DNA of 64,000 bases from Patescibacteria group bacterium (GTDB lineage Bacteria; Patescibacteriota; Minisyncoccia; Minisyncoccales; RBG-13-36-15): contig JAHCSE010000001.1 of NCBI GenBank assembly GCA_018609195.1, positions 9,559 through 73,558 on the forward strand, in the 5' to 3' direction. A program made the position numbers and the translations under genes. Shown piece after piece: positions 46,305 through 61,613 of this stretch (its first letter is position 1; each line of letters opens with the position of its first letter). The notes below the pieces were generated by a model, which searched no databases, had not been told where the DNA came from, and saw only the letters and a program-made list of their open reading frames with translations.

Positions 46305-47420
46305 TTACCCAAAAGTAAATGTAAAGACCTGAAGTCCTGGTGAGTGAATTATTATTTCTAACGTGTGCCATCCGTACTCCTTCCCCGTATCTACAAGATT
46401 ATAGAGTTTTGATTCTTTGACCTTCGCGAATGACTTCCCCTCTTTAAAAAACGAGTCAGCCCCTTTGTTTTGCTCGGTAAGATATTCTCCATCGAGCTTT
46501 ACTTCAAGCGTAATCTCTGAATTTTCTCGATTTTCGAGCACTACATTTACCTTATTGGCCTTGTAGCGAAGGATGAGTTTTCCTTTCTCATCCACAAATT
46601 CTGCAAATTCAGGGTTAATACTCCAAGTGCCCACAAAATAAAAGCGGTTTCGCGCGATGCGCTCAGGTTCTACAAATGTATGTGGTTCATTCGGGCGAAC
46701 ATTTTTATCTTTATTACCAAGATTATTTATGCGCAAATACCCGAGATATATTTCCGGAGTCCCAATTTTTCGGAACTCAACACCAAGAGGTGCTTCTTTG
46801 ATTTCTGAAATTTTGTCAATCGAGAGAAATCCAGCTTCCAAAAGAAGCTGTTGAATTGCTCGTTCGGTTTCTGCATAACGGCCCTCTCCGAAATGATGGT
46901 AACGAATATTTCCATTAACGTCTATCAAATATTCAGCCGGCCAGTATTGGTTTTGAAAGGCATTCCAGGTTTTGTGATCGTTGTCCAAGGCAACGGGATA
47001 TTCCAGATTATATTTGCGAACTTCTTGTAAAACATTTTCCTTCTTTTTTTCAAAATCAAATTCCGGAGAATGAACGCTTAAAAGAACAAAGCCGCTATCT
47101 TTATATTTTCGATGCCACTCCGAAAGATGCGGAAAGGTACGGATGCAGTTAATGCAGGTGTAGGTCCAAAAATCGACCAAAACTACTTTGCCTCTTAGTT
47201 CCTCGAGGGTCAATGGCTCGGAATTAATCCAATCTTCAATACCTACCAACTCAGGTGCCTTTCTTTCAATGGGCAATTTTTGTAATTGCGGAATGGGCAT
47301 GATTCCTTTGAAAGTAATAAGACCTTTTTTATTTAGATATGAAATAGTACCCGCGATCAAAAGAAGCGCTAAAAGAAATAAAAAAATATACCTCATTGAA
47401 GTAATTTGCTTTGCAAACAA
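46305..47420 (-). CDS. membrane-anchored thioredoxin-fold protein with C-terminal beta-sandwich (DipZ C-terminal-like)
   Basis: VVLVDFWTYTCINCIRTFPHL (CxxC) redoxin domain plus about 170 aa of C-terminal domain. Confidence 0.7.
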   Translation of the reverse strand: MFAKQITSMRYIFLFLLALLLIAGTISYLNKKGLITFKGIMPIPQLQKLPIERKAPELVGIEDWINSEPLTLEELRGKVVLVDFWTYTCINCIRTFPHLSEWHRKYKDSGFVLLSVHSPEFDFEKKKENVLQEVRKYNLEYPVALDNDHKTWNAFQNQYWPAEYLIDVNGNIRYHHFGEGRYAETERAIQQLLLEAGFLSIDKISEIKEAPLGVEFRKIGTPEIYLGYLRINNLGNKDKNVRPNEPHTFVEPERIARNRFYFVGTWSINPEFAEFVDEKGKLILRYKANKVNVVLENRENSEITLEVKLDGEYLTEQNKGADSFFKEGKSFAKVKESKLYNLVDTGKEYGWHTLEIIIHSPGLQVFTFTFG

Positions 47421-47429
47421 ATGTGCTTT

Positions 47430-48185
47430 TTAGTTTTCTTGAACCCAATTAAGTTTTGCTATATGCGGAATCCACCCCTCTTTATCGACAGGCATATAGA
47501 TAGCTTCATACGTTTGCCCTGGCTTCAATCTCGGTTTTGGCTTAGGTTCATGATAATAGTAGGGCACCTCCACATCTATATCCGGAAAGCGCCACTTCTG
47601 TAAAAGTGAATAAATACCAGTTACCATTTTCTTGCCATCATTAATCAATAAAAATGATATCCAATAGGGATGCCCCTGCTCTTTTGGCCACGAAAATTCT
47701 GGTTCTTTTTGTTTTGAAATTGAGAGAACATCATTCTTTTGAATTGACGGTAGGGTATCAATTTTACCAAGAACAGTATTAGAGGCGATAATTTTCCTCC
47801 CTTTTCGAGCTCTTATTATGTAATGTGCACGGTCCTTATAATTATCGGTTACAAAGGCATAAAGGGAACCCTCAAACATTGGGAGTAATTTCGCATTAAT
47901 CTTCTTAAACGAATTGTAATTCTTGCAATCTTGATCCTTGCTTAACCTGCATTCCCATAACTCAAAATCTCTCGCTTTCACTGCTGGCCGAAATAGAATA
48001 GTGGTTGGTTCTGATTCACCCTTTTTTAACAAATCTACCTTCCCGCCGTATACACAGGCAAGAATAAATTTTGAACCAAAAAGAATCTTCGCCCGATGCG
48101 CCAAAACAGATTTATACGAAATCCATGCCGCTAACTTAATAAAAGTGCGACCTAAGATATTTTTTGTATCAAAAAGGAAAAACAT
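47430..48185 (-). CDS. hypothetical protein (251 aa)
   Basis: Intact ORF packed between the Trx-fold gene and ccdA. No family recognised. Confidence 0.5.
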   Translation of the reverse strand: MFFLFDTKNILGRTFIKLAAWISYKSVLAHRAKILFGSKFILACVYGGKVDLLKKGESEPTTILFRPAVKARDFELWECRLSKDQDCKNYNSFKKINAKLLPMFEGSLYAFVTDNYKDRAHYIIRARKGRKIIASNTVLGKIDTLPSIQKNDVLSISKQKEPEFSWPKEQGHPYWISFLLINDGKKMVTGIYSLLQKWRFPDIDVEVPYYYHEPKPKPRLKPGQTYEAIYMPVDKEGWIPHIAKLNWVQEN

Positions 48186-48202
48186 TAATACGGATCCTTC
48201 TA

Positions 48203-48979
48203 TTACAAATAATCAAGTATCCGCTCGTAGTCTATAAATTGCAAAGCTCTAAACCCCCAGGAAATTAAGAGCACCATCTTATTAGTAAGAAGCAGGATAC
48301 CAAGGAGGATAAGGAATGCGCCTCCGATAATTTCTACCCAGTGTAAATATCGAGTTATTTTTGTAATCGCAGAGGATACTGCTCCAATACCAGCGGCAAT
48401 AAGTAAAAAAGGGATAGCTAACCCCATAGAGAAAACGAAAAGGAGAAAGCCGCCCTGAAAGGCGGTAGAAGAAGTCGAAGCAAGAAAGAGAATTGCACCA
48501 AGAATTGGTCCCACACATGGTGTCCAGCCAGTGGCAAAAGCTGAACCAAGTAGAGCTGAACTCAATGGATTTCCGCGTCTGACTTGAAAAGGGAGTCTTA
48601 CCTTTCGTTCTTTGCTGAGGAATGAGGTAAGAAAAGGAATCCTGAAAATTCCTAACATAGAGAGACCGAAAAGTATGACAAATACGCCGGCAATACGCGT
48701 GAGCCAAATGCGATAAGCGCCAAAGGCTTGCCCTGCAAGACCTGCTAACGTTCCGAAGAGAACAAAAATAACCGTGACTCCCGCCATAAAAAATAGGCCG
48801 TTCAAAAAAATCTTCCTGCGGGCACTTCTTGCTTTTGTAGGATCTCTGAGTTCTTCAGCAGAGGTTCCACTGATAAAACCTAAATAAGCCGGTATAAGAG
48901 GAAGAGTGCAAGGGGCTAAGAACGTAATAATGCCGGCAATAAAAGCCGGGATAATGAGGGCAATTACTTCAGGGGTCAT
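48203..48979 (-). CDS. ccdA: cytochrome c-type biogenesis/thiol-disulfide transporter CcdA
   Basis: Canonical motifs LAPCTLPLIPAYLGF and WTPCVGPILGA; 258 aa. Confidence 0.85.
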   Translation of the reverse strand: MTPEVIALIIPAFIAGIITFLAPCTLPLIPAYLGFISGTSAEELRDPTKARSARRKIFLNGLFFMAGVTVIFVLFGTLAGLAGQAFGAYRIWLTRIAGVFVILFGLSMLGIFRIPFLTSFLSKERKVRLPFQVRRGNPLSSALLGSAFATGWTPCVGPILGAILFLASTSSTAFQGGFLLFVFSMGLAIPFLLIAAGIGAVSSAITKITRYLHWVEIIGGAFLILLGILLLTNKMVLLISWGFRALQFIDYERILDYL

Positions 48980-49506
48980 AATGCAAAAAGTTGTTGTACC
49001 TTAGATTTCATCTCATCAAAGGTCATGGGGCCCCGCTTATGGAAGAGGATATTTCCTTCTCCATCAACAAAAATTGTCTCTGGCATAGAAAATCCTCCGA
49101 TTGAGCGATAAAAAGAATCTTTGGGATCGAGGAGGAAAATAAGGGTATCTGTCACACCGAGATCATCTGTATAGCTCTTGGTTAGCTCAAGAGATTCAGC
49201 TCGGTCAATTGGAATAATGGTGATTTTATCTCCAAATTCCTGTTGGAGTTTTGCAAAATCCCCCAGTTCCTTAACGCAGAATGGACACCACACTGCCCAG
49301 GAATTTACAATAATGGATTTGCCTTGGAAATCGGAAAGAGCCACTGTGTTGCCACTATAGTCTTTCAAACTGAAATTGGGCGCTGGCTCAGGTTTTGGGG
49401 GCGTAAGAGTTTGAGTATCCTGTTTCTGACCCCCGCCCGAAACTATAAAAAAGATGATAATGGAGGCAAGAATAATAATTCCCACCACTACAAAGATTTT
49501 ATTCAT
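48976..49506 (-). CDS. TlpA/ResA-like membrane-anchored thioredoxin
   Basis: VNSWAVWCPFCVKE CxxC motif and N-terminal TM helix. Overlaps ccdA by 4 nt. Confidence 0.82.
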   Translation of the reverse strand: MNKIFVVVGIIILASIIIFFIVSGGGQKQDTQTLTPPKPEPAPNFSLKDYSGNTVALSDFQGKSIIVNSWAVWCPFCVKELGDFAKLQQEFGDKITIIPIDRAESLELTKSYTDDLGVTDTLIFLLDPKDSFYRSIGGFSMPETIFVDGEGNILFHKRGPMTFDEMKSKVQQLFAL

Positions 49507-49562: not shown

Positions 49563-49721
49563 TTATGCACATCCACCGCAGCCCCCTTTTTCTTTATGAG
49601 TATGTCCGCACTTCGAACATTTTTCCTGACGCTCCGCTCCACAGCAGGTCCCAGGGCTTTCAGTAGACTCTGAACCACAGCCGGGACAAATATGTGTTTT
49701 TTCGGTTGTTTCTTCTGCCAT
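49563..49721 (-). CDS. 8-Cys micro-protein 1 (52 aa), unannotated
   Basis: Own translation: MAEETTEKTHICPGCGSESTESPGTCCGAERQEKCSKCGHTHKEKGGCGGCA. Paralog of 51189..51338. Confidence 0.6.
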   Translation of the reverse strand: MAEETTEKTHICPGCGSESTESPGTCCGAERQEKCSKCGHTHKEKGGCGGCA

Positions 49722-49778: not shown

Positions 49779-50834
49779 TTATTTATACAATTCGGTATCT
49801 GGATAAGCTGCCACCCACGAAAACCAAAAAGCAGAAAAGGGATTGATGCGCTCCTCGCTGCCATCTGGCAATATCTTAAACATCCTGATCACATCAAGTT
49901 CTTTATCAGGCCGCAAGATAATAGTGGTATCTTGAAAAACATCCTCTACAGTGCCTTTTTCTTTTACTGCATCAATGTGGTATGCCTTAGCTTCTCCATT
50001 GATAACAATCCCGAATACAAAAGCATCATTAGGAAGTCGGGTATCAGTAGGTTTGGCAAGGGATAATGCCAAGTTTGTAGTTGAAAAATAATCGCCATAA
50101 GGCTTTGAGCCATAAAAGCGAAGAGCTCCCGTATCTTTGGAAAGAATTTCGCCATCAGGATGTAATTTTTTCCAGTTGCCGTAGCGCATCTGGTCTGAGG
50201 GCAATACTTTGAGTTTTGTTCCTGTCATTTCTCCTACAGCGGCTTCTCCCAAAATTTGCGGCCACAGGCTATCTGTCTTCCTATCATACATCACCAAGTT
50301 TGCCTTCCAGAGTTTTCCTGAGGTTCCAAACTCAACTCTCTCCCCTTTTACCAGAGGATCAAATATATACCCAGTGAGACAGAGAGGACAATAAGTAACA
50401 AGAACGCGTTCTCCCTCCACAATATCATTGACGATTTCATGCCAGACAGTAATCTGATAGGGATAAAAACGGTGAGTGTTTCCTCTCGAAAAAGCAATAC
50501 CTGGCTCTTCATCACTTAACCACTGATTTGCCTCTGTAATAGAAATAAACTTTGGATTATCAATAGAGGGAATGCCGTCTTTGGGCGGACCTCCACTAAT
50601 AATTTCTTCCAAAGGTATACTATGTTTAACTCCATCCGTCACCATAATTTCTTTTTCGGTTACCACAATTTCTTTTTCTCCTTCTTTGGTGATAATTTCC
50701 TCTTCTATGAGAACTTTTTCCTCTCGTGTTTCTCCTTTCGGCAGTTCAAACCTTTCTTTTCCAAATCTTTGGAAAATTAAAAAACCTACTCCTAAAAGAA
50801 TTAAAACTAAAATAGCAATATTAATAATCTTCAT
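49779..50834 (-). CDS. DUF3179 domain protein (membrane-anchored)
   Basis: GGPPKDGIPSIDNPKF motif, WHE...VTYCPLC, and an N-terminal TM helix. Confidence 0.7.
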   Translation of the reverse strand: MKIINIAILVLILLGVGFLIFQRFGKERFELPKGETREEKVLIEEEIITKEGEKEIVVTEKEIMVTDGVKHSIPLEEIISGGPPKDGIPSIDNPKFISITEANQWLSDEEPGIAFSRGNTHRFYPYQITVWHEIVNDIVEGERVLVTYCPLCLTGYIFDPLVKGERVEFGTSGKLWKANLVMYDRKTDSLWPQILGEAAVGEMTGTKLKVLPSDQMRYGNWKKLHPDGEILSKDTGALRFYGSKPYGDYFSTTNLALSLAKPTDTRLPNDAFVFGIVINGEAKAYHIDAVKEKGTVEDVFQDTTIILRPDKELDVIRMFKILPDGSEERINPFSAFWFSWVAAYPDTELYK

Positions 50835-50844: not shown

Positions 50845-51099
50845 TTACTTTTTAGCCCACTGTTTTACCCTTTCGTAATCAACTTCGCCACAAATGAAAT
50901 CTTCGTTTGCAGTGTTGAAGAAAAATGGTACTCCCATACACCTCCCCTCCGCATATTCTCTCATTTTTTGAGCACTGTCTTTATTATGCCACACTTCGTA
51001 TTTTTCAACTTTTACCCCTTCTTCTTTCTCTAATCTCTCTATCAAAGGGTGCATATTCATACAATGAGGGCATTCTTCCCCGTAAAATTCCAAAAGCAT
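50845..51099 (-). CDS. small thioredoxin/glutaredoxin-like protein
   Basis: 84 aa; FYGEECPHC CxxC; GVPFF cis-Pro region. Confidence 0.75.
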   Translation of the reverse strand: MLLEFYGEECPHCMNMHPLIERLEKEEGVKVEKYEVWHNKDSAQKMREYAEGRCMGVPFFFNTANEDFICGEVDYERVKQWAKK

Positions 51100-51188: not shown

Positions 51189-51338
51189 TTAAGCTGCGCA
51201 ACACTCTTTGGCGTACTTACCCGAACCACATCCACAAACCTTTTCTCTTGATGCACCACAACACGTTCCTCCTTCTTCACCCTCGGGAGGTGTACTGCCA
51301 CAGCTTTGGCATTTGTACTGGTCTTTTTCTTCAGCCAT
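51189..51338 (-). CDS. 8-Cys micro-protein 2 (49 aa), unannotated
   Basis: Own translation: MAEEKDQYKCQSCGSTPPEGEEGGTCCGASREKVCGCGSGKYAKECCAA. Confidence 0.6.
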   Translation of the reverse strand: MAEEKDQYKCQSCGSTPPEGEEGGTCCGASREKVCGCGSGKYAKECCAA

Positions 51339-51465: not shown

Positions 51466-51780
51466 TTATTTTAATAATCCTTTAATTTTTTCAGCAAGGG
51501 AGTAGCAAGCCATTCTCCCAATCTTCACCCTTCTTACCAAACCTGCTCTCTCAAGTAAACTCAATTGATGGGAAACAGCGCTTATACTAATATGTAAAAT
51601 TTGTGAAAAGTCAGTAGGACACAATTTTTTATAGTGTTTGAGCAAAAAAATAATTTTAAGGCGGGTGGGGTCAGAACAAAGATAATAAAAACTGCTTTTT
51701 TCTTTAATTTTTTGAGAAAGTTTTGCTAATTCTCTCTGGGAATTTTTGATTTCTCTTCCCTTAAGAAGCATTAATTGCAT
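51466..51780 (-). CDS. ArsR/SmtB-family transcriptional regulator
   Basis: 104 aa; winged HTH (DPTRLKIIFLL...ISISAVSHQLSLLERAGLV). Confidence 0.8.
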   Translation of the reverse strand: MQLMLLKGREIKNSQRELAKLSQKIKEKSSFYYLCSDPTRLKIIFLLKHYKKLCPTDFSQILHISISAVSHQLSLLERAGLVRRVKIGRMACYSLAEKIKGLLK

Positions 51781-52896: not shown

Positions 52897-53064
52897 TTAT
52901 TGATGCCTGTCCTGTAGGACGTGCTTATTAATTTCGAGATTGCAGCTTTTGTGTTCTCTGCACCAAGCCTCACATTTCTCTGCCCACTCTTCATCTTCAT
53001 ACTTATATCCACATTCCTCGCATTGATATAATTCTTTGTTTTCTTGTTCTATTTTCTTAACCAT
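52897..53064 (-). CDS. Cys-rich zinc-ribbon protein (55 aa), unannotated paralog of 57515..57700
   Basis: Own translation: MVKKIEQENKELYQCEECGYKYEDEEWAEKCEAWCREHKSCNLEINKHVLQDRHQ. Overlaps the upstream gene by 8 nt. Confidence 0.65.
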   Translation of the reverse strand: MVKKIEQENKELYQCEECGYKYEDEEWAEKCEAWCREHKSCNLEINKHVLQDRHQ

Positions 53065-53332
53065 TTTGGGGAGATAATTCTTTTAATTTTTCTACTAACT
53101 TATTTTTATCAAGCCCTCCAACTGCAAAAAGCTCTCCATTAACGACAATACCAGGCGAAACCATAATACCGTATTCCTGAACCATTTTCTGGCCTTGTTC
53201 AGAAAACATATCAATGTATTCAATTTCCGCATCTGGAAATTGGGGTTTAATTTCTTCTTCTAAAGTTTTCTTTGCCGTGGCACAGTGACTACACCCTGGT
53301 GTTGAAAGTTCTTGAATTTTTATCTTATTCAT
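53057..53332 (-). CDS. small thioredoxin-fold protein (redox-active disulfide protein 2-like)
   Basis: 91 aa; TPGCSHCATAKK CxxC; SPGIVVNGE. Confidence 0.75.
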   Translation of the reverse strand: MNKIKIQELSTPGCSHCATAKKTLEEEIKPQFPDAEIEYIDMFSEQGQKMVQEYGIMVSPGIVVNGELFAVGGLDKNKLVEKLKELSPQNG

Positions 53333-53882
53333 ATTCTCTTAAGGCTTGGAAAGAATTATCTAATATATTATTGACCTTATCCCAATATCCTTGACTGATA
53401 GCATCATTCAACTCCTCTTCAATAAATACTTCGAGAGAGACTCCTCGTTCTGCAAGTCCTTGAGCGAGTATGCTTAATTTGAATTCAATTTCTTGAGGAA
53501 TTTCTGTTACTTGCCCCCGAGAAGTAGTGCCGGTATATGCCTGGTCAGCAAGGATACGAGCAGAATATGCTTGAAAAATTGAAGCATCTATAATTTGTTC
53601 TTTCGTAATGCTCGTAGAATCATATATTACCCAACCAGAATCAGTTCTCGGGTCAGCATCTGCTTGCACAACTCCTGGTATGCCCAATAAGGAATTTACC
53701 ACACTTGAACGACATCCCAGACAAAACATATTGTTAATCTCCAAATCCACCTTCCGAAGGTTTGCTTGGACAACATCTCCTCCAAGAGAAGTATCCTTAC
53801 TGCTGCCACCGAATAGAAACACTCCTCCGATAATTGCCCCCACAATAATTATTGACAATGGTATGAGAAGACTCTTATTCAT
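53325..53882 (-). CDS. membrane-anchored heavy-metal-associated (HMA) domain protein
   Basis: N-terminal TM helix; NNMFCLGCRSSVVNSLLGIPGVVQADAD is an MxCxxC ferredoxin-like metal-binding domain. Confidence 0.65.
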   Translation of the reverse strand: MNKSLLIPLSIIIVGAIIGGVFLFGGSSKDTSLGGDVVQANLRKVDLEINNMFCLGCRSSVVNSLLGIPGVVQADADPRTDSGWVIYDSTSITKEQIIDASIFQAYSARILADQAYTGTTSRGQVTEIPQEIEFKLSILAQGLAERGVSLEVFIEEELNDAISQGYWDKVNNILDNSFQALREYE

Positions 53883-54200: not shown

Positions 54201-54235
54201 AATATGTGTTTAATTAGTTATTATTTTTCTATACA

Positions 54236-55357
54236 TTACCTTACTGAAGTATATTCTCCGAGCAGACCTTTTTTCGATAATACTATCTGCCATTGCTGGG
54301 CTTTTCGAGCCCGGAAGGATCCTGCAGCCGAGAGAAGATAGTATTTCCACATTCGATAAAATCTATCCCCATATTTAGTGCGCAATTCATTCCAGTGCGA
54401 ATTAAAGTTGTCCCACCAGTGCATAAGAGTCGTATCGTAGTGAGTACCAAAGCTATGCCAGTCCTCAAGAACAAACAGCCCTTCCGCTGCCTTTGCGATC
54501 TGTTTGTATGACGGAAGCATTGTATTCGGAAAAATATATTTCAAATACCACGGATCCAATCCAATTGAGGACGTACTAACACCTCCTGCGTCTAAGAGAA
54601 AAAGTCCATCATCGCTAAGCATGGAGTGAACCTTTTCCATGTAGAGTCGGTAATTTTTGTATCCGACATGCTCAAACATCCCTAACGAAACAATATGGTC
54701 AAACGTTCCATCAATATCACGATAATCCTGTAGACGAGTTTCTGTCGGCAAATCACCGCGCTGTGCGTTCGCATAGTCCGCCTGCTCTTTCGACACCGTA
54801 ATCCCTACACATTGAGCCCCGTAGCGCTCAGCAGCAAAGTTGATAAAGCTGCCCCACCCTGAGCCAATATCGAGAATTCGATCGCCTTTTTGTATTCCAA
54901 GTTTCCTGCACGTAAGGTCGAGTTTTAATTCCTGTGCCTCGTCAAGTGTTTGCGCATTCTTCCAGTACCCACATGTGTAGGTCAGTCGTTTGTCGAGCAT
55001 TGCCTTAAATAAGTCATTGCCAATGTCATAGTGATCTTCTCCAACCTGAAACGCGCGCAAACGCGGCATGTTGATGAGCTTTGCCTTGAGATAATTCCAT
55101 ACCAATACTGGATTTATGCGTGCCTGTTTTTCAAGTCTCGAGCGAAGAACTTTGTTAAAAAATTCATCAAGCTCTTTCACGTCCCACCAGCCGTCCATAT
55201 ACGACTCACCAAGCCCGAGAGAGCCCTGGCTTAGGACACGACCGTAGAATTTCTCGTTGTGCACTTGAATATCCCATGGTCGATCGCCATTGATTGTAAT
55301 ACCTGCCTCCGAAGCTAATTGTTCAATAACTACTTTAGGTGTAAACGGCATATTCAA
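54236..55357 (-). CDS. cfa: cyclopropane-fatty-acyl-phospholipid synthase
   Basis: 373 aa, colinear with classic Cfa (GSLGLGESYMDGWWD, VLDIGSGWG, GMFEHVG, YDTTLMHW). Visibly GC-richer than its neighbours. Confidence 0.88.
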   Translation of the reverse strand: MNMPFTPKVVIEQLASEAGITINGDRPWDIQVHNEKFYGRVLSQGSLGLGESYMDGWWDVKELDEFFNKVLRSRLEKQARINPVLVWNYLKAKLINMPRLRAFQVGEDHYDIGNDLFKAMLDKRLTYTCGYWKNAQTLDEAQELKLDLTCRKLGIQKGDRILDIGSGWGSFINFAAERYGAQCVGITVSKEQADYANAQRGDLPTETRLQDYRDIDGTFDHIVSLGMFEHVGYKNYRLYMEKVHSMLSDDGLFLLDAGGVSTSSIGLDPWYLKYIFPNTMLPSYKQIAKAAEGLFVLEDWHSFGTHYDTTLMHWWDNFNSHWNELRTKYGDRFYRMWKYYLLSAAGSFRARKAQQWQIVLSKKGLLGEYTSVR

Positions 55358-55386
55358 TTATTTTTCTACAAACGTTAGAAAGATTA

Positions 55387-56214
55387 CTACATTCCCCATA
55401 TAAAGAATATAGCAAACATCCACATACTTGTTAAGACTAATATTCCGCCTGCGACCTTTTTCATTGTTTCTGTTTTTCCAATCATTGTTTTGAAAAACGT
55501 GTGCTTTCCCTGCCCGATAAATACGGTAACTGCAATAAGAAATAATGCTTGAGCAAGACTAAAAATCAGAAAGCTTGAAATACTGACTAAAAATTCTCCA
55601 CCCACAAGAGGGAAGAATACCAATGGTAAAAAGATGGGCAAGAAACACATCAATCCTCCAGCCCCATATACAATGCCAAAGCCAAAAAGATTAACGCTTT
55701 GTGAACGCCCACGACTCATTTTATTAACTTTATCTCTGAAGGAAGAAAGAAAATTAATATTGATAGATTTGCCACGCAAAAAAGCAATGCCGATAAACAA
55801 AATGAGAATTGCAACGGCAAATTTCAATTGGCTAGCATAGGAAGCCAGAAATGTCCCGATAGTCGCAAAAAGTAAACCAAGGACAATAAAGAAGCTGAAT
55901 ACACCGAGTGAGGCAATAATGCCAAGCTTGATACTTCTTTTAATTGGCGAGTGTTTTTCTTCTCCCTCGTCCATTCCAAGATAAAAAGACATATAAGCCG
56001 GAAGCACTCCTAAGGAACAGGGTCCAAAATTCACAATAAGCCCGGCAATGAAAGCAAAGCCCAAAATACCAAGCGTGCTAAAGGCAGCAAGATTGCTTGT
56101 CTGGGGAATAATAATCCCATACAGAACTTTCCAGCCAAAGATACTGGCAACCACAAAAATAGTAAGTGCTGCCAATATCCAAATGCTATAAGTTACTATT
56201 TTTGACTTAATCAT
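55387..56214 (-). CDS. CcdA/DsbD-like thiol-disulfide transporter paralog
   Basis: NFGPCSLGVLPAYMSFY motif. Start set at MIKSKIV (4 nt after the stop of the upstream gene) rather than the track's 56286. Confidence 0.68.
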   Translation of the reverse strand: MIKSKIVTYSIWILAALTIFVVASIFGWKVLYGIIIPQTSNLAAFSTLGILGFAFIAGLIVNFGPCSLGVLPAYMSFYLGMDEGEEKHSPIKRSIKLGIIASLGVFSFFIVLGLLFATIGTFLASYASQLKFAVAILILFIGIAFLRGKSININFLSSFRDKVNKMSRGRSQSVNLFGFGIVYGAGGLMCFLPIFLPLVFFPLVGGEFLVSISSFLIFSLAQALFLIAVTVFIGQGKHTFFKTMIGKTETMKKVAGGILVLTSMWMFAIFFIWGM

Positions 56215-56218
56215 AAAA

Positions 56219-57076
56219 TTAAGGAAAAAGAATTTTTGTAAATGGAGTGATGAAAACAGAAGAAAGAATAAGGAAAATTCCGACAATAAGAAGTAGAACG
56301 CCGCTTACTCTTTTGATAGCAACGGTTGATTGGCGAAGACTTTGGAGTAAAGTTTCTTTGGAAAAAGCAATGAGCAGTGATACAACAATCATCAGAAGTG
56401 CCATTACTAATGAATAAACCACAAAAGCCAGAAACGCATCTGAGAAGCCACCTTGAGATAGTGCAAATACAATGAGCCCACCCATGATTGGGCCTCCACA
56501 ACCGATACCAAGTAGTGGATAGCCAAAACCATAGCCATAGAGTTTTCCAAATCCCGCTTGTTTTTCTTCCGGCAATGATTTCGGATGCCATAAATGCCCT
56601 AATCTCCCAAAAGGATTCCCTCTCCCTGTGGCGTGGCTAAAACCAAGATACAGAAGAAACACTCCTACAATGCCACGCAGCCATCTTACTGGTATGCTTG
56701 GGTTTTCTCCTGCAAGCCCTAATGATTTCCCAAAACCAGCTCCTAAAATACCAATGCCAATACCGAGTAAAAGATTAAAGGTGATAAGACCTAATGCTGC
56801 TGCTAATCCAGAGAGGAGTAGTTTCGTTGCTGACTTTTTACTTTCACCTTCTTTTGTTGTGTAGTATTGAGCAAAGTAGGCAGGAAGCAATGGAAAAGCA
56901 CAAGGGTTAAAGAAACTTGCCACTCCTGCAACTACCGCAACAAATAGTAACCCAAAAGCAGCACCTCCCTTCATTATGTTGATAACAAACCAGATAAATA
57001 ACCCATACCCGCCTGCTACCAAAACAAAAATAATAAAAAAAAGAAAAATGAGCTTGCTCCAATCTTTTAACGACAT
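56219..57076 (-). CDS. CcdA/DsbD-like thiol-disulfide transporter paralog
   Basis: 285 aa; FFNPCAFPLLPAYFAQY and GIGCGGPIMGG. Overlaps ArsR-2. Confidence 0.72.
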   Translation of the reverse strand: MSLKDWSKLIFLFFIIFVLVAGGYGLFIWFVINIMKGGAAFGLLFVAVVAGVASFFNPCAFPLLPAYFAQYYTTKEGESKKSATKLLLSGLAAALGLITFNLLLGIGIGILGAGFGKSLGLAGENPSIPVRWLRGIVGVFLLYLGFSHATGRGNPFGRLGHLWHPKSLPEEKQAGFGKLYGYGFGYPLLGIGCGGPIMGGLIVFALSQGGFSDAFLAFVVYSLVMALLMIVVSLLIAFSKETLLQSLRQSTVAIKRVSGVLLLIVGIFLILSSVFITPFTKILFP

Positions 57077-57369
57077 AGCTTTTTGCAGAATTTGTTAATA
57101 TGCTTATCCATTAACCCAAGAAGCGGCTTTGTTGTTTCTTTGTTTAGAGTATAAATGCGTTCTTTTCCATTTCTTTCCATGCTTACAAAACCACATTTTT
57201 GAAGCCGTCCTAAGTGATGCGAGACAAGACTTTGCTCATAGCCAAGTTTCTTGGCAATAGCAGTTACATTTAGCTTTCCTTTTCGAAGCAAATGGATAAT
57301 ATCCCACCTTGTTTTATTCCCCAGGGTTTCAAAAAAGATTTTATATGGTTCGCGAATAATTCTCTTCAT
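57067..57369 (-). CDS. ArsR/SmtB-family transcriptional regulator
   Basis: 100 aa; LGNKTRWDIIHLL...QSLVSHHLGRLQKCGFV winged HTH. Confidence 0.82.
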   Translation of the reverse strand: MKRIIREPYKIFFETLGNKTRWDIIHLLRKGKLNVTAIAKKLGYEQSLVSHHLGRLQKCGFVSMERNGKERIYTLNKETTKPLLGLMDKHINKFCKKLCR

Positions 57370-57376
57370 AGTATGA

Positions 57377-57404
57377 ATTATATTTCATATGAAACTTATG
57401 TCAA
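57377..57404 (-). promoter_or_regulatory. consensus promoter of ArsR-2 with palindromic operator; transcript probably leaderless
   Basis: Minus strand TTGACA-taagTTTCATATGAAA-TATAAT. The 12-bp perfect palindrome fills the spacer, and the -10 box ends only 7 nt before the ATG. Confidence 0.65.
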
Positions 57405-57514: not shown

Positions 57515-57700
57515 TTAGCTCTCTGACTTCTCAAGGAAAGCAGGTTCTTTCACAGCGTGCTCGGTAATCTCAAGGTTACAGCTTTTGTGTTCCAAGCACC
57601 AAGCCTCGCATTTCTCTGCCCACTCTTTTTCTCTATAAGTAAAACCGCACTCTCTGCACTGGTAATACGTTTTATTGTTTTGAGTAATAACTTTTGGCAT
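57515..57700 (-). CDS. Cys-rich zinc-ribbon protein (61 aa)
   Basis: YYQCRECGFTYREKEWAEKCEAWCLEHKSCNLEI. Paralog of 52897..53064. Confidence 0.65.
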   Translation of the reverse strand: MPKVITQNNKTYYQCRECGFTYREKEWAEKCEAWCLEHKSCNLEITEHAVKEPAFLEKSES

Positions 57701-57729: not shown

Positions 57730-58107
57730 TTATTCATTACTTCTTCTCCAAAATCTAAAATTTTCTGGCCAGGCACTAATCGCTAAAGCCAAGGCTGCAG
57801 TAAATAATCCAATATCGCGAACTGTAATTGTATTAATACCAGAGACTGTAAGAACGGTGACTAAGTGCAAAGCTCCAAGAAGTGCTGCTAACCAAGTGAA
57901 GTAATCTATTAAAAGCAAAGCACCAATAATAATATCAAAAAGGGCTGTTCCAATCATTACTCCTTTTAAGGAGATTGGTAAAAGATTAGCTGCCCAGGGT
58001 TGCACGTAGCCTCCCCACCCTACTGGGTCCCGTAAAATGAGAATGCCAATCCACAAGAAAGTAATGGCCATTCCCACTCGTAATATGTGAAATGCACTTG
58101 ATTTCAT
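57730..58107 (-). CDS. DoxX-like 4-TM membrane protein
   Basis: 125 aa; ILRVGMAITFLWIGILIL N-terminus and four hydrophobic helices. Confidence 0.5.
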   Translation of the reverse strand: MKSSAFHILRVGMAITFLWIGILILRDPVGWGGYVQPWAANLLPISLKGVMIGTALFDIIIGALLLIDYFTWLAALLGALHLVTVLTVSGINTITVRDIGLFTAALALAISAWPENFRFWRRSNE

Positions 58108-58175: not shown

Positions 58176-58589
58176 TCAAATTATAAGCTCGCTAATTAAT
58201 ACAATAAGTCCCATAGCAAAAACGGTAAAGGCAGACAGTACACACCAAAAACACCAAGCTTTGATAACCCGCCATTGAAGATAGGTCAAAATGATTGATA
58301 TAACTACTCCAGCTCCAATAAGAATCTTTACCAACATATCCCAAAAGATCAGTGGTTCAACCCCAATTATCAAAAAAGCAGTGAAAAGGGAAATTAAAAC
58401 ATAAAATGTAAATCCCAAAACTTCATTATGAATACCAATAATTTTATTGTACTTACTTCCCAAGACTTCATAGCACTCCTCGCCGAAAATACAGACAGGT
58501 TCCTCTTTTGCTATTCTTTTACGAATTAAATAAACTGTCTCTGAAATACCTATGGCGGCGAGTGTGAAAAGAAGGGCATGTGGAGTCAT
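58176..58589 (-). CDS. vitamin K epoxide reductase (VKOR) family protein
   Basis: 137 aa; loop Cys pair (PVCIFGEEC) and a TM CxxC (AWCFWCV). Confidence 0.68.
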   Translation of the reverse strand: MTPHALLFTLAAIGISETVYLIRKRIAKEEPVCIFGEECYEVLGSKYNKIIGIHNEVLGFTFYVLISLFTAFLIIGVEPLIFWDMLVKILIGAGVVISIILTYLQWRVIKAWCFWCVLSAFTVFAMGLIVLISELII

Positions 58590-58917: not shown

Positions 58918-59703
58918 CTATTTTTCATTTCCCTCGTTCTTGTTCTCTTCTGGTAATTTTTTGCCAAATCTTTCAAAGGCTCTAAGAATTTCCAAAGGCA
59001 CAGCAAAAATAATCGTATTTGATTTATCAGAGCTTATATCATTGATTGATTGAAGAGTTCTTAAATGAAGGGCTCCCTTAGCCTCAGATAGAGTCCGGGC
59101 AGCTTTTGCCAGATTACCGGAGGCAATTACTTCTCCTGCGGCCTTAATAATTATTGCTCTTTTTTCCCTTTCTGCTTCAGCTTGCTTTCCAATTACCCTC
59201 TTCATTCCTTCTGGTAAAGTTATATCTTTTAATTCCACATTGAGAACTTTAATTCCCCAAGGATCGGTAGCCTTATCTATAATGCTTCTTATGTTTTCTG
59301 AAACCCTGTCTCTTTGAGAAAGGAGGCCATCTAAATCTACTTGACCTACGGCATTTCGCATTGTTGTTTGGGCTAACTGAGAAATGGCAAAGAAAAAATC
59401 CTCTACTTCCAAAACTGCCTTATCAGCTTCTTGGACTTTATAATAGATAACAGCATTAACCCTAACTGAGATATTATCCTTGGTAATTGCCTCCTGATCT
59501 GGTACATCTACCGCCTTTACTCTTAAATCTATTTTTCGATAAAACTGAACAATAGGCAAAACTATTCTCCAGCCAGGTTCCATCAAACCGATATACTTAC
59601 CCAGCATAAACTTAACTCCCTTTTGATACTGATTAATCTGCTTAATGGAGGTTAAAATAATCAAGACAATTATTGCTAAAATTACCCAACCTATATTTGG
59701 CAT
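58918..59703 (-). CDS. SPFH/band-7 (stomatin/slipin-like) protein
   Basis: 261 aa; N-terminal TM helix, KDNISVRVNAVIYYKV, and an EAEREKRAII coiled region. Confidence 0.85.
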   Translation of the reverse strand: MPNIGWVILAIIVLIILTSIKQINQYQKGVKFMLGKYIGLMEPGWRIVLPIVQFYRKIDLRVKAVDVPDQEAITKDNISVRVNAVIYYKVQEADKAVLEVEDFFFAISQLAQTTMRNAVGQVDLDGLLSQRDRVSENIRSIIDKATDPWGIKVLNVELKDITLPEGMKRVIGKQAEAEREKRAIIIKAAGEVIASGNLAKAARTLSEAKGALHLRTLQSINDISSDKSNTIIFAVPLEILRAFERFGKKLPEENKNEGNEK

Positions 59704-59723: not shown

Positions 59724-60359
59724 TTATTCGACCTTTAAGGAACCCAGCATTCCATTGGCGCGGTGACCAGGGATAGCACAATAATACTCAAAGGTACCTA
59801 GCTTATCGGGTATGAAAGAGACAGTTTTCGATCCAGTACCATAGTAACCACCAGATAGTGAGTAGTTAACTCCTAGTTCATCGATAGTAAAAGTATGGGT
59901 GCCAGAGATGGAAAAGTTAATCTTAAGTTCTTGTCCTTTTTGAACCGTTGCTGAATTTGGAATAAACGCAAAGTTGCGTGCCGTCATTGAAATCTCTTTA
60001 GTTGGAAGTGGCTCAGGAGTAGGTTCAGGTTCAGGGGTTGGCTCAGGCTCTGGAGTAGGTTCTTGCATAGGTTCAGGTTCAGACTCTGGTTCTGGGGTTG
60101 GTTCGGGTGTAATCATCTGTTCTTCTGTCAGTGCTGGAGCGATTGCCTCTTCTTCATCTGGGAGAGACACCTCCTCGGGTGGACTAGGAATTTGTTCTCC
60201 TGGGGCGACTTTTTCTGGTGCTAGAGGCCCGGTTGGAGTTGGAGTTGGGGCTTGATAACCTCCTTTTAAAATAAAATATCCACCCACAATGACTGCAAAC
60301 GCCACCGCTGCAATAATAATACCCCACGTTACTTTATCCATATATTCCCTACCTTTCAA
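59724..60359 (-). CDS. membrane-anchored cupredoxin with Pro/Glu/Thr-rich linker
   Basis: C-terminal domain with GTHTF...YYCAIPGHRANGM type-1 Cu ligands. The true start may be MDKVTW (ATG ending at 60341). Confidence 0.75.
   Translation of the reverse strand: MKGREYMDKVTWGIIIAAVAFAVIVGGYFILKGGYQAPTPTPTGPLAPEKVAPGEQIPSPPEEVSLPDEEEAIAPALTEEQMITPEPTPEPESEPEPMQEPTPEPEPTPEPEPTPEPLPTKEISMTARNFAFIPNSATVQKGQELKINFSISGTHTFTIDELGVNYSLSGGYYGTGSKTVSFIPDKLGTFEYYCAIPGHRANGMLGSLKVE
60007..60108 (-). repeat. coding tandem repeat (PEPTPEPEP linker)
   Basis: ggttcaggt/ggctcaggc-type 6- to 9-nt periodicity encoding (T/E)PEP repeats. Confidence 0.7.
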
Positions 60360-60891
60360 TAAATTCTTTTATTTTATCTTCATCAAAACCATCTAAAATT
60401 TCTCTTTTGTTAAGCTTGGTTAAGATAATTTTCCCATCATAATTATTGGGAGCTAAATAAACATTGTCTGGGTATTGTTTTACTAAAGCTGTGATCTTTT
60501 CTATTAAACCTAATTTACACTTAAACTTATCACAGTTGTATTGAATGATAACTCCTGGTTTGCCTCTGCCATCGGCATGCTCTAACATGTGTTTTTGGAT
60601 GACTTCTGGTATAGGTTGCGAAAGAATGTGAGCTGGGGGTATTGCTTCTGAATGATTAAGGAGTGTCGTTGGAGGTAAATCAGGACTGCTGGTTAAAAAC
60701 CATCCTAAACCAAAAATTCCTCCTCCTATCACCAAGACAATTAAGCTTAAATTTAGTGTCTTTTTAAATCGCAGTCTCCGTCTTCCCCCCTCTTGTTCTT
60801 TTTGTCTAAGTTTTCTTTTGAGAAGTCGACGCTCTTTTTTTGTCAGTTGTTGATCCTCAACGAGAACCTTGTTTTTCTCTAATTCCTCCAT
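60349..60891 (-). CDS. membrane-anchored DUF3105-like protein
   Basis: 180 aa; basic N-terminus plus a TM helix; HMLEHADGRGKPGVIIQYNCDKFKC core. Family assignment is tentative. Confidence 0.4.
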   Translation of the reverse strand: MEELEKNKVLVEDQQLTKKERRLLKRKLRQKEQEGGRRRLRFKKTLNLSLIVLVIGGGIFGLGWFLTSSPDLPPTTLLNHSEAIPPAHILSQPIPEVIQKHMLEHADGRGKPGVIIQYNCDKFKCKLGLIEKITALVKQYPDNVYLAPNNYDGKIILTKLNKREILDGFDEDKIKEFIER

Positions 60892-60917
60892 TTTCCTTTA
60901 AGTAAAACCGGATCCTT

Positions 60918-61613
60918 TTATTTCAGATCAGCCAATGCCTGATCTACTGCGGCCTTGAAGGTTGAGTAAGGAACTGCTCCAGGAATGGATCGCCCATTTA
61001 CAAAACTTCCCGGAGTCCCTCTTACTCCTGTCTTTATCCCCTCTTGATAATCAGCGGCTACCTTATCTTTGTATTTTCTGGAAGAAAAACAACTATTAAA
61101 CTGATCTATATTAAGCCCGAGATTTCCTGCTAATTCTTGATAAAGTGCTTTTCCCAATCTGGATTGATTTTCAAATGCGCCATCTACAAACTGCCAAAAT
61201 CCATCATTTCCCGTTTGTTCCCAGACGCACTCGGATGCTTCAGCTGCAGGGGTTGCCTGAGGATGAATTTGGTCTAAAGGAAAGTGCTTGTACACCCAAC
61301 GGACTTGACCGGAATACTCTGCCAAAATCTGCTTCAGAGTGGGATGAAGTCTATCGCAAAATGGACACTCAAGATCAGAATATTCAACAATAGTTACGGG
61401 GGCCTCAAAATCTCCTCGGATATGATCTTTCTCGGAAATAGTAAGCGTTCCTCCTGGACTTCCTTTTTGAGACTCTGTTTGAGAAATATCAGCCTGCGAT
61501 TTTTGAGTTAATCCAGTGGATTGTTGAGGGCTTTTTGTATAAATCAAAGCTCCAACAATCAGTAAAGCACCTACAATTATTGAGACTGGTAAATATAATT
61601 TTTCTCCTCTCAT
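60918..61613 (-). CDS. DsbA-family thiol:disulfide oxidoreductase
   Basis: YSDLECPFCDRLHP CxxC, GTPGSFVNG cis-Pro loop, N-terminal TM helix. Confidence 0.82.
   Translation of the reverse strand: MRGEKLYLPVSIIVGALLIVGALIYTKSPQQSTGLTQKSQADISQTESQKGSPGGTLTISEKDHIRGDFEAPVTIVEYSDLECPFCDRLHPTLKQILAEYSGQVRWVYKHFPLDQIHPQATPAAEASECVWEQTGNDGFWQFVDGAFENQSRLGKALYQELAGNLGLNIDQFNSCFSSRKYKDKVAADYQEGIKTGVRGTPGSFVNGRSIPGAVPYSTFKAAVDQALADLK

Follow-up and report, generated by a model that had tools for sequence, protein, structure and literature searches.

Why should a bacterium with a reduced genome carry five genes for CcdA-like membrane proteins? This question was raised by a stretch of DNA from a Patescibacteria group bacterium (GenBank assembly GCA_018609195.1, contig JAHCSE010000001.1, positions 9,559 to 73,558 of the forward strand). 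Hereafter, the window denotes this whole stretch of 64,000 nucleotides, and the island denotes its part from 46305 to 61613, where every gene was on the minus strand and was transcribed from high to low coordinates. A previous sequence-only reading had described this one-strand island as a self-contained system for envelope redox and metal handling, with an oxidising (DsbA/VKOR) and a reducing (CcdA/TlpA) branch and with no obvious substrate. The strand arrangement and the character of the locus, including both branches, were supported by our analysis. However, the island was not a single system, since it consisted of at least three separately conserved and separately promoted modules and contained a foreign insertion. 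On balance, we leaned slightly towards explaining it as a composite locus of envelope thiol homeostasis and soft-metal defence with a metal-sensed transmembrane thiol relay.

Gene identities were assigned by Pfam and NCBIfam profile scans of the open reading frames (ORFs), and the genes are named here by their lower coordinates (Table 1). All four CcdA/DsbD-type genes reported earlier were present within 9 kb, and the fifth gene at 22846 was borne out as well. However, only 48203 encoded a canonical CcdA. The Pfam family DsbD_TM (PF02683; TCDB 5.A.1; cut-off 27.1 bits) gave 25.4 bits for 55387, 18.4 bits for 56219 and no match for 51942, and the NCBIfam scan returned nothing for these three proteins. 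Their homology to 48203 was apparent from phmmer (E-values between 3e-12 and 2e-8) and from blastp. In a neighbour-joining tree, the sequences formed four groups, namely canonical CcdA and three groups that we called CcdL1, CcdL2 and CcdL3. The protein 48203 grouped with Thermus and actinobacterial CcdA, 56219 and 51942 (CcdL1') belonged to CcdL1, and 55387 (CcdL2) clustered with Nanoarchaeota genes (loci L017 and L020) located beside genes for heavy-metal-associated (HMA) and Thioredoxin_3 (Trx3) proteins. The gene at 22846 represented CcdL3. Judging from these comparisons, CcdL1, CcdL2 and CcdL3 appeared to be three uncharacterised DsbD/CcdA clades that were missed by Pfam and NCBIfam or scored below their thresholds.

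The residues expected of a thiol relay were conserved: a Pro-Cys pair in the first transmembrane (TM) helix and a Cys-x-x-Pro motif in the fourth were invariant across 21 mixed sequences. Among 59 CcdL1 sequences, C65, C195, P64, P198, Y188 and M227 were present in all 59, and M231 in 57. The two methionines formed a transmembrane MxxxM motif that was specific to the CcdL1 clade and missing in canonical CcdA. The CcdL1 family was small: of 1.84 billion representatives searched, only 97 clusters matched at E<=1e-30, and the sole PDB sequence matching its profile was CcdA 5VKV (E 0.069 over the full length). The AlphaFold2 model of CcdL1' had a predicted local distance difference test score (pLDDT) of 72. 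The CcdL2 ORF extended to a TTG at 56286, and the ATG at 56214 was its likely start. In several related proteins, CcdL was fused to a TlpA-like or redoxin domain (P0229, P0236, P0238, P0239 and P0255), and therefore a redox role of the family was supported.

The CcdL1 and CcdL2 genes followed an ArsR/SmtB regulator gene, 57067, with its own promoter. A perfect TTGACA-16-TATAAT was located at 57404-57377, directly upstream of this gene, and a terminator-like hairpin (57458-57476) was located upstream of the promoter. The palindrome TATGAA-N6-TTCATA at 57372-57389 overlapped the -10 box and ended 3 nt before the ATG; the putative operator site of the regulator was TATGAATTATATTTCATA. It was the single zero-mismatch copy in the window, and a search of the rest of the window for a regulon yielded no further site. 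The palindrome was found at the same position before orthologous ArsR genes in five other loci (L045, L049, L050, L059 and L083), while archaeal loci had a TTTAAATA box followed by TCATATGA-type palindromes instead. Separately, the element TGTGGATAA was conserved in several of the loci L045, L049, L059, L060, L083 and L010, about 10-25 nt upstream of the ArsR-CcdL1 promoter's -35 box, and the window had TGTGGAAAA at the matching position.

The putative sensor site of the regulator was conserved as well. When 21 regulators encoded next to CcdL1 were aligned (the two of the window and 19 of other loci), they shared the pattern LxxCGF ... DKHxxxxCKKxC, with one internal cysteine and a C-terminal His-x4-Cys-x3-Cys. 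The cysteines were conserved in 20, 20 and 19 of the 21 sequences, and the histidine in 20. Three-thiolate sites of this kind are used by the thiophilic-metal sensors of the ArsR family. Both window regulators exceeded the HTH_metalloreg cut-off of 55 bits (74.9 and 62.5), and the 57067 type combined an HTH_5 domain, the Cys3His site and an inverted-repeat operator over its own promoter, as is expected of ArsR/SmtB repressors. From these features, we infer that the ArsR-CcdL operon is autoregulated and derepressed by metal.

To see the operon in relatives, one genome per species and the Joint Genome Institute metagenomes were scanned with a CcdL1 profile, and the ORFs around the hits were searched with the island proteins. 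The sample comprised 91 non-redundant CcdL loci, 75 of them CcdL1 loci, and many loci were only 1-4 kb long. The hosts were Patescibacteria, Aenigmarchaeota, Woesearchaeota, Nanoarchaeota, Micrarchaeota, Thermoplasmata, Hadesarchaea, Bipolaricaulota and others. In many loci, an ArsR of the 57067 type was located immediately upstream of CcdL1, and genes for DUF7128, CcdL2, anchored HMA and Trx3 proteins recurred. A Nanoarchaeota locus (L017) had the order ArsR-ZnR-CcdL1-CcdL2-HMA-CcdL3-Trx3. Since each gene of this operon had a counterpart in the window, the distant CcdL3 gene at 22846 would belong functionally with the island. Loci L020 and L081 shared the order CcdL2-HMA-Trx3-CcdL1. A Saccharibacteria metagenome-assembled genome (MAG; L011) carried DsbA-ArsR'-Trx84-DUF3179-CcdL1-TlpA-CcdA, where ArsR' and Trx84 correspond to 51466 and 50845 of the window. 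A Microgenomates MAG (L012) had a 20-kb island with DsbA, MerA, ArsR', two glutaredoxin-like proteins, a flavoprotein disulfide reductase, ArsR-CcdL1, MerA fragments, a Crp regulator and DUF3179-TlpA-CcdA-CopA. Thus, the neighbourhood check proposed with the sequence-only reading showed that the modules recur in L011, L012 and other genomes. In L012, two adjacent ORFs (11394-12058), 0.7 kb downstream of ArsR-CcdL1, represented the N- and C-terminal pieces of a seemingly disrupted second MerA; an intact MerA was present in the same genome.

The genes adjoining CcdL1 in relatives also made the substrate less obscure than had been stated, since they encoded MerA, Cu(I)-type P1B-ATPases, HMA proteins and Cys-rich ArsR regulators. 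Within 5 kb of the 75 CcdL1 loci, we counted ArsR at 27, MerA at 13, a membrane protein that we called TM4-type at 11, and a Cu-type P1B-ATPase and an HMA protein at 7 each. In the 19 CcdL1 loci flanked by 3 kb or more on either side, ArsR was present in 10, MerA in 5 and CopA in 4, and 13 of these loci had a metal marker of any kind. The MerA proteins of three relatives (L010, L012 and L014) scored 492-515 bits against TIGR02053 (cut-off 454), and the relatives' MerA had the active site GGTCVNVGCVPSK and a C-terminal Cys-Cys pair. The P1B-ATPases had the CPC, YN and MxxSS motifs of the Cu(I)-type signature. The presence of MerA in candidate phyla radiation (CPR) genomes had already been reported (PMC8261052), in a paper with no mention of 'transporter' or 'cytochrome c biogenesis'. 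The MerA proteins of many CPR classes were 75-80% identical, which points to horizontal spread among CPR.

A link to mercury was also provided by 56219 itself, which was 85% identical to a CcdL gene (L010:9851-10708) in a Patescibacteria mer operon (JACZRI010000004) with the order ArsR'-MerA-TM4-TlpA-CcdL-TM4. The rest of this 20-kb locus had no other gene resembling the window. Such identity in unrelated surroundings argues for horizontal transfer of the CcdL1 gene. Similarly, CcdL3 was 52% identical to a Nanoarchaeota protein (L017:12418-13416), which suggests that it was acquired by transfer; its identity to a protein of a second Nanoarchaeota locus (L018:11193-12158) was 47%.

The association with mer genes allowed another interpretation, the main alternative, in which CcdL carries a thiophilic metal rather than electrons. 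Hg(II) or Cu(I) would be held as a dithiolate between the membrane cysteines and by the CcdL1 methionine pair. An outer CxxC protein (HMA or TlpA) would hand it through CcdL to cytoplasmic Cys proteins (Zn-ribbon, Trx3 or HMA), which would deliver it to MerA in those loci that have one. In ArsR-type mer operons, where the classical transporters are missing, CcdL would thus be a functional analogue of MerT/MerP/MerC; in the window, with no MerA near, the metal would end on small Cys-rich proteins. In favour was an operon of merA and HMA-ArsR-HMA::CcdL, in which the fusion P0026, with a cytoplasmic HMA domain, was the only membrane protein and MerA terminated in KLSCCAE. Also in favour were a MerC-like::CcdL1 fusion (P0195), a Zn-ribbon::CcdL1 fusion (P0201), the MerA neighbours and the mer-operon homologue of 56219 described above, and the invariant (M227) and nearly invariant (M231) methionines that canonical CcdA lacks. 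Moreover, ArsR-type mer operons anticorrelate with merT/P/C (PMC3466566), and proteins with CcdA and TrxA domains carry the annotation of mercury transporters in actinomycete mer loci (PMC12195606). However, the transport role of these actinobacterial proteins appeared to be likewise annotation-based, and the MerC match was weak (21 bits). The association with Cu(I) exporters would make no sense for an importer, mercury import without a local MerA would harm the cell, and several relatives were fused to TlpA-like reductase domains. We therefore regarded metal carriage by CcdL as possible but unlikely. The broader proposal that CcdL1, CcdL2 and CcdL3 are previously unrecognised CcdA-fold movers of Hg(II)/Cu(I) that work by cysteine/methionine ligand exchange, serving as the missing transporters of ArsR-type mer systems in CPR, DPANN and other archaea and exchanged between the two domains as an operon with their sensor, operator and Zn-ribbon, HMA and Trx partners, was put forward with equal reserve.

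In addition, the TM4-type proteins of the mer-linked loci looked like better analogues of MerT/MerF than CcdL did. They were small membrane proteins with a CxxC within a TM helix and a C-terminal CxxC, and they had no Pfam or NCBIfam match (examples: L010:8763-9284, L010:10938-11210, L014:9412-9840, L009:15-961 and L006:9361-9933). They recurred beside CcdL1 in mer operons of CPR and DPANN in the 11 loci counted above, and none was found in the window. The TM4 family would be a candidate for a MerT/MerF-like transporter.

Comparison with annotated mer systems gave few matches. HMA 53325 scored 31.6 bits against MerTP (cut-off 180), and no classical merT, merP, merC, merF or merE gene was recognised in the window. 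The Mycobacteroides mer plasmid pMAB23 carried MerT and MerH and no CcdA-type gene; its MerT and MerH had no match in the window or to the TM4 proteins. A tblastn search of 72,556 plasmids with 56219 and P0026 returned nothing, and there was therefore no sequence link to annotated plasmid mer genes. A Paenarthrobacter plasmid had a cluster of a related kind, ArsR - P-type ATPase - LspA - CcdA - TlpA - VKOR.

The other genes around CcdL1 and CcdL2 included ones for soluble or anchored Cys proteins. The Zn-ribbon 57515 had five conserved cysteines and one histidine and belonged to DUF7128, a family of 116 members found in CPR and Woesearchaeota, which adjoined CcdL1 in six loci (L014, L015, L017, L018, L059 and L096). 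In about 10 clusters, a DUF7128 Zn-ribbon was fused to the small membrane domain DUF2933 (for example P0403 / L103:211-531), and in one Patescibacteria genome, a distance of 2 kb separated such a gene from one for an HMA-P1B-ATPase. HMA 53325 had a C-terminal domain of no known family and, in NCBIfam, weakly matched MerTP, CopZ and a metal-binding protein of the UxxU type; its orthologues came after CcdL2 in L017, L020 and L081. Trx3 53057 was kept in L002, L017, L020 and L081 and was likely to be an electron donor or thiol partner. The CcdL1' gene had a homologue in L002, 89% identical, located between a P1B-ATPase and a CopZ-like HMA protein. A further relative, P0009 (464 aa, 62% identical to 51942), had an extra 190-residue N-terminal membrane domain with no family match and with the repeated His motifs HDIEHF, EWNHY and GYHVLEH.

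Paralogy of the two Zn-ribbon/CcdL1 units was detectable at the DNA level (repeats D2 and D4); in D2, a stretch of 127 nt was 73% identical between the Zn-ribbon copies. Because of this visible paralogy and the recurrence of the modules in other genomes, the clustering of the island genes was not due to chance.

The operon was interrupted between CcdL2 and HMA. The CcdA 'fragment' noticed earlier at 53906 did exist, and its translation matched the C-terminus of 55387 by blastp, but it turned out to be a duplication scar, in which the last 173 nt or so at the 3' end of the 55387 gene were directly repeated. Between the two copies was a 1.3-kb cassette encoding a cyclopropane-fatty-acyl-phospholipid synthase (CMAS), a gene missing from the earlier list. 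The GC content at third codon positions (GC3) of the CMAS gene was 0.457, compared with 0.29-0.37 in the neighbouring genes. In the syntenic metagenome contig L081, CcdL2 was followed by a 17-nt gap and HMA-Trx3-CcdL1, and the cassette was absent. Therefore, it was a later insertion into the operon and lay outside the system.

This methyltransferase also bore on whether the island is an arsenic or organoarsenical resistance locus, with ArsR regulators, an ArsG-like permease and a methyltransferase. Two ArsR-family genes and a gene for an S-adenosylmethionine-dependent methyltransferase were indeed present, and 48203 matched NCBIfam ArsG with 51 bits. However, this score was far under the cut-off of 200 and was obtained for the canonical CcdA only, the methyltransferase was a clear CMAS, foreign and absent from the syntenic contig, and no ArsB/Acr3, ArsC or ArsM family match was found among the scanned island ORFs. 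The ArsG score and the foreign CMAS gene effectively refuted the arsenic interpretation, to which we gave practically no credence.

Downstream of the CcdL genes, a second regulator gene, ArsR' (51466), headed a separate module with its own promoter-like site at 51799-51826. The same ArsR subtype was located directly before MerA in L010, before MerA/TM4b in L012 and before Trx84-DUF3179 in L011. Its cysteines were not shared with the MerA-linked relatives, and for this reason no metal was assigned to ArsR'. Trx84 was paired with DUF3179 in L011, and DUF3179 was found beside TlpA-CcdA in L011 and L012 and beside MerA-CcdL1 in L077. Selenoprotein forms with UxxC/T are known in the DUF3179 family (PMC9312934, PMC13188914), and the selenocysteine at this motif suggests that it is a redox or metal site. 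The two 8-Cys proteins are possibly metallothionein-like cytoplasmic metal sinks, a likeness of size and 16% Cys only, with no Pfam or NCBIfam metallothionein match for either.

The end of this module was a canonical reducing pathway. The TlpA (48976) and CcdA (48203) genes overlapped by 4 nt, and 46305 matched the soluble part of DipZ in PDB entries 2HYX/5CYY with an E-value of 5e-54. Given this match to the solved DipZ C-terminus, 48203 and 46305 could be considered as a split DipZ, with CcdA as a separate gene and the orphan 47430 between. In a Micrarchaeota MAG (L032), there was no counterpart of 47430, and CcdA was followed directly by DipZ-C.

A canonical CcdA next to TlpA recalls cytochrome c maturation, the role expected in the sequence-only reading. 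The CcdA copies might serve System II maturation (CcdA-ResA-ResB/CcsB-ResC/CcsA) of cytochromes encoded elsewhere in the genome, an explanation suggested by the family name and by one distant CcdL2-type locus (L031) with TlpA and a ResB homologue. As had been noted before, no client of this kind was present in the window: we found no ResB homologue and no cytochrome, and the single CXXCH motif was in a GalT/HIT protein. ResB occurred in 1 of the 91 loci, no ORF with multiple CXXCH motifs was present in 838 kb of related loci, and what adjoined the CcdL genes were metal and thiol genes. Moreover, respiratory chains are usually missing from CPR genomes. The cytochrome-maturation interpretation was thus rejected for the window and was very improbable overall. 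The premise that cytochromes are the expected clients of CcdA was itself too narrow. For the DsbD family, roles in resistance to mercury and to copper have been reported (PMC4608589), the thiol oxidoreductases ScsB/ScsC are induced by Cu and bind Cu(I) (PMC10907172), and ScsB-type transporters reduce envelope peroxiredoxins and serve non-cytochrome clients (PMC3322552).

The opposite end of the island carried the oxidising genes. The N-terminal TM helix and the CPFC motif of DsbA, as well as the expected four cysteines of VKOR (a loop pair C-x5-C and CFWC), were read from the sequences and provided the features of a DsbA-VKOR pathway. DsbA was co-located with the module in L011, L012 and L032. 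The DoxX gene of the earlier list was found as a DoxX/MauE-like gene at 57730, but its score did not reach the family cut-off. Its homologue adjoined VKOR in L002, where a trio of Trx3, VKOR and DoxX-like genes was kept, and in L018 a MauE/YHS protein adjoined ArsR. Likewise, the DUF3105-like assignment of 60349 was supported by way of two homologues (L031:4874-5392 and L035:126-659; phmmer about 1e-27) that scored 25.8 and 36.7 bits and adjoined CcdL2/TlpA genes, while the window protein itself was below the cut-off. The cupredoxin 59724 had a Pro/Thr/Glu-rich linker and a predicted C-x5-H-x4-M copper site. Its paralogue was encoded at 39500-40279 on the minus strand (Cupredoxin_1 57.6 bits) and was fused to DUF7282. 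Copper proteins in a presumed non-respiring cell were without explanation.

With DsbA/VKOR on one side and CcdA/TlpA/DipZ-C on the other, the island held a complete set for oxidation and reduction. It might then be a general system for oxidative folding and isomerisation or for oxidative stress, with no specific metal role; the ArsR proteins would be thiol redox sensors, and HMA, cupredoxin and the Cys-rich proteins clients or bystanders. Redox and persulfide sensors do exist in the ArsR family (a weak BigR match of 31 bits was obtained), the window had no metal-resistance enzymes, and CcdL2-only loci were mostly paired with TlpA or DipZ-C. However, MerA, Cu-type P1B-ATPases and HMA proteins were strongly enriched beside CcdL1 in relatives, the three cysteines and the histidine of ArsR are typical of thiophilic metal sites, and HMA was an operon member in bacteria and archaea alike. 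Therefore, a purely redox function was improbable in our opinion.

According to the explanation that we favoured, the three modules would work side by side. In the first, DsbA and VKOR, with the DoxX/MauE-like, cupredoxin, DUF3105 and SPFH proteins, would form extracellular disulfides. The second, transcribed from the operator-covered promoter, would comprise ArsR, CcdL1, CcdL2, HMA, Trx3, Zn-ribbon and CcdL1', with the CMAS insertion after CcdL2; CcdL3 of 22846 would be a member of it, as in the archaeal relatives. A thiophilic ion, for example Hg(II), Cu(I) or Cd(II), would bind the Cys3His site of ArsR and release repression. The CcdL proteins would then link cytoplasmic Cys proteins (Trx3 and the Zn-ribbon) to extracytoplasmic CxxC proteins such as the anchored HMA. 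Reducing equivalents would be sent outward, keeping exposed metal-binding and structural cysteines reduced and metal-free, while DsbA/VKOR would oxidise nascent proteins. The third module, in which ArsR' heads Cys8, Trx84, DUF3179, Cys8, TlpA, CcdA, the orphan and DipZ-C, would be a reducing pathway of the canonical split-DipZ kind, to which further CxxC clients and perhaps cytoplasmic Cys-rich metal sinks are added. The distribution of proteins was as follows: no signal sequence was present in Trx3 (CSHC), Trx84 (CPHC), the 8-Cys proteins or the Zn-ribbons (5 Cys), the CcdA and CcdL proteins were located in the membrane, and N-terminal anchors were present in HMA (CLGC), TlpA (CPFC), DipZ-C (CINC), DUF3179 (CPLC) and DsbA (CPFC).

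Several points weighed against this explanation. The window contained neither a MerA homologue nor a P1B-ATPase, and the metal link therefore rests on relatives; the window's own 750,154-bp contig was not among the best 120 of 5,856 MerA relatives. The direction of the CcdL relay and its cargo, electrons or metal, were deduced from sequence, and the HMA::CcdL and MerC-like::CcdL1 fusions and the invariant MxxxM of CcdL1 pointed towards a metal hand-off. We know of no HMA domain described as a client of CcdA. The cysteine site of ArsR could sense oxidation rather than metal. Finally, there was no explanation of why a single system should require three or four different CcdA-like proteins.

As to the other contents of the locus (Table 1), the two ArsR regulators, HMA, cupredoxin, DUF3179, SPFH, two Zn-ribbons and two 8-Cys proteins of the previous list were present. 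The number of thioredoxin-fold proteins, given there as six, was five because VKOR does not have a thioredoxin fold. Besides the CMAS gene, the orphan 47430 and a 71-aa membrane ORF at 58595 had been missed. The island was flanked by G6PD and PGI-like ORFs on one side and by kinase, CutA1 and Nth genes on the other; ribosomal, elongation factor, ThiI and RNR genes were also among its housekeeping surroundings.

Table 1. Features of the island and the outlying CcdL3 gene, with window coordinates, strand and supporting evidence
Feature	Coordinates	Strand	Evidence
Membrane-anchored DsbA-like oxidase, CPFC	60918..61613	-	Pfam Thioredoxin_4 105 bits, DSBA 72 bits
Anchored DUF3105-like protein	60349..60891	-	Pfam 15.6, below cut-off 25 (PF11303)
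Anchored cupredoxin	59724..60359	-	Pfam Cupredoxin_1 28.8 bits, Copper-bind 23.7 bits
SPFH/Band 7 membrane-scaffold protein	58918..59703	-	Pfam Band_7 121 bits
71-aa membrane protein, two TM helices	58595..58810	-	no family match
VKOR, DsbB-type re-oxidant of DsbA	58176..58589	-	Pfam VKOR 77 bits
DoxX/MauE-like membrane protein	57730..58107	-	Pfam DoxX 22.2 bits, cut-off 23.6
Cytoplasmic Cys-rich Zn-ribbon DUF7128, copy 1	57515..57700	-	Pfam DUF7128 20.7 bits
Promoter and putative ArsR operator of the ArsR-CcdL operon	57372..57404	-	promoter score 12/12
ArsR/SmtB regulator	57067..57369	-	Pfam HTH_5 47 bits, NCBIfam HTH_metalloreg 75 bits
CcdL1, divergent 7-TM CcdA-like protein, putative thiol relay	56219..57076	-	phmmer match to 48203; Pfam sub-threshold
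CcdL2, second divergent CcdA-like clade	55387..56214	-	Pfam DsbD_TM 25.4, sub-threshold
Inserted cassette, CMAS 54236-55357 and 40-aa ORF 54078-54200	54075..55379	-	Pfam CMAS 270 bits
Duplicated CcdL2 3' end	53902..54074	-	173-nt direct repeat, 92% identical to 55380-55552
Signal-anchored extracytoplasmic HMA protein, CLGC	53325..53882	-	Pfam HMA 30 bits
Cytoplasmic Thioredoxin_3 (Trx3), CSHC	53057..53332	-	Pfam Thioredoxin_3 39 bits
DUF7128 Zn-ribbon, copy 2	52897..53064	-	Pfam 23.8 bits
CcdL1', paralogue of 56219 at 36% identity	51942..52799	-	blastp; no Pfam/NCBIfam match
Second ArsR-family regulator, ArsR'	51466..51780	-	Pfam HTH_5 48 bits
49-aa protein, 8 Cys	51189..51338	-	no family match; close relatives only
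84-aa cytoplasmic thioredoxin/glutaredoxin-like protein (Trx84), CPHC	50845..51099	-	Pfam Thioredoxin 25 bits
Anchored DUF3179 protein, CPLC	49779..50834	-	Pfam 271 bits
52-aa protein, 8 Cys, paralogue-like partner of 51189	49563..49721	-	no family match
Anchored TlpA/ResA-like reductase, CPFC	48976..49506	-	Pfam Redoxin 66 bits, AhpC-TSA 62 bits
Canonical CcdA electron transporter	48203..48979	-	Pfam DsbD_TM 77 bits, cut-off 27.1
251-aa orphan between CcdA and DipZ-C	47430..48185	-	no Pfam/NCBIfam match; singleton cluster
Anchored DipZ C-terminal homologue (DipZ-C), TlpA-like thioredoxin CINC and Thioredoxin_10	46305..47420	-	Pfam Thioredoxin_10 107 bits, AhpC-TSA
CcdL3, the fifth CcdA-like gene, C-terminal extension	22846..23895	+	NCBIfam DsbD subfamily 46 bits, cut-off 330

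A few further observations were made in the window. The CcdL3 gene was the sole sizeable plus-strand gene of its neighbourhood and was located directly after the only tRNA gene of the window (tRNA-Pro, 22698-22771), and the GC skew switched sign at this site. Just beyond the end of the island, an 86-aa ORF (46027-46287, minus strand) contained a CKEC motif, matched no family and shared 4 nt with the start of the G6PD gene; it may be non-coding or encode another small redox protein. The motif AAAGGTCG, often found after GGGG, had 11 copies in the window compared with 2.0 expected (minus strand: 29266, 36510, 37378, 40313, 49760, 51374, 52846, 55452, 59729 and 61639; plus strand: 31682). Ten copies had the orientation of the coding strand, and most were found after hairpins, at 16-47 nt upstream of a start codon. 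The motif preceded the genes for DsbA, SPFH, CcdL1', both 8-Cys proteins and the second cupredoxin, and these may have in it a common promoter element or 5' leader. Long G/C-anchored inverted repeats occupied the intergenic intervals 61614-61730, 51339-51465, 58811-58917 and 49507-49562. The one upstream of the DsbA gene was CCCCCACCACTTTT...AAAAGTGGTGGGGG, and the interval between ArsR' and the 8-Cys gene had a nested palindrome with arms of about 20 nt. These repeats may be terminators or structured leaders.

If our explanation is correct, and the evidence tilted modestly in its favour, thiol and soft-metal defence would account for five CcdA-family genes in a reduced, non-respiring genome. 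The CcdL partner set, namely a Cys3His ArsR with a conserved operator, DUF7128, anchored HMA and Thioredoxin_3, was common to CPR and DPANN. The identity of 47-52% between CPR and Nanoarchaeota proteins and of 85% between unrelated CPR suggests that a resistance module has moved horizontally between ultra-small organisms. CcdL could be considered as a candidate for the missing Hg transporter of ArsR-type mer operons (PMC3466566) or for an accompanying thiol repair function.

Among known systems, the island resembled Scs in having a metal-stress-linked membrane relay of the DsbD family with extracytoplasmic CxxC partners (PMC10907172, PMC3322552). The Scs partners bind Cu(I) and perform thiol-disulfide chemistry, and the island was likened to them functionally, from its genes alone. 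Both coexist with a canonical oxidising Dsb pathway and have, or in the island would have, non-cytochrome clients. However, no Scs family was among the NCBIfam matches listed for CcdL, no dedicated comparison with Scs being run, and CcdL lacked the periplasmic N-terminal domains of ScsB and had an extra N-terminal TM helix instead. Scs is controlled by CueR/CpxR regulators, whereas the island had ArsR-type regulators, HMA, Thioredoxin_3 and DUF7128 Zn-ribbon partners, and up to four relay paralogues. The envelope of the CPR host is Gram-positive-like, unlike that of Scs hosts.

The actinobacterial ArsR-type mer and metal clusters shared with the CcdL loci an ArsR, a MerA or P-type ATPase, CcdA-like and TlpA-like proteins and, in some cases, VKOR, an arrangement that fits L010, L014 and the Paenarthrobacter plasmid cluster (PMC12195606; PMC3466566). 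In contrast to them, the window had no MerA or ATPase, and the actinobacterial plasmid CcdA grouped with canonical CcdA, while CcdL1, CcdL2 and CcdL3 formed separate clades. The MerP/MerT/MerC system likewise combines a CxxC protein of the HMA type on the outside with a membrane protein bearing a cysteine pair and with Cys acceptors in the cytoplasm, and MerA adjoined CcdL genes in relatives; however, the island proteins were not members of these families by sequence, and their membrane component belonged to the CcdA fold family.

Similar to DipZ of M. tuberculosis (Rv2874), 46305 had the C-terminal thioredoxin-plus-jelly-roll region and was encoded near a canonical CcdA, but the island proteins were split rather than fused, and the unit included the orphan 47430 and a separate TlpA. 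DsbA and VKOR of the island, both above Pfam thresholds and the latter with its four cysteines, corresponded to the DsbA-VKOR pathway of Actinobacteria and Cyanobacteria, although no quinone biosynthesis genes were visible in the window. In mau clusters, with their trio of MauE, MauF and MauD, MauE is encoded next to DsbD-family and thioredoxin-like genes involved in methylamine dehydrogenase maturation. The DoxX/MauE-like protein of the island was similarly encoded near DsbD-family and thioredoxin-like genes, but its DoxX match was sub-threshold and there was no mau cluster. A role in methylamine utilisation has been listed for the DsbD family (PMC4608589). Thus, DsbD-family thiol relays tied to copper and mercury stress were already known, and what the island adds to them is three clades and their partner set.

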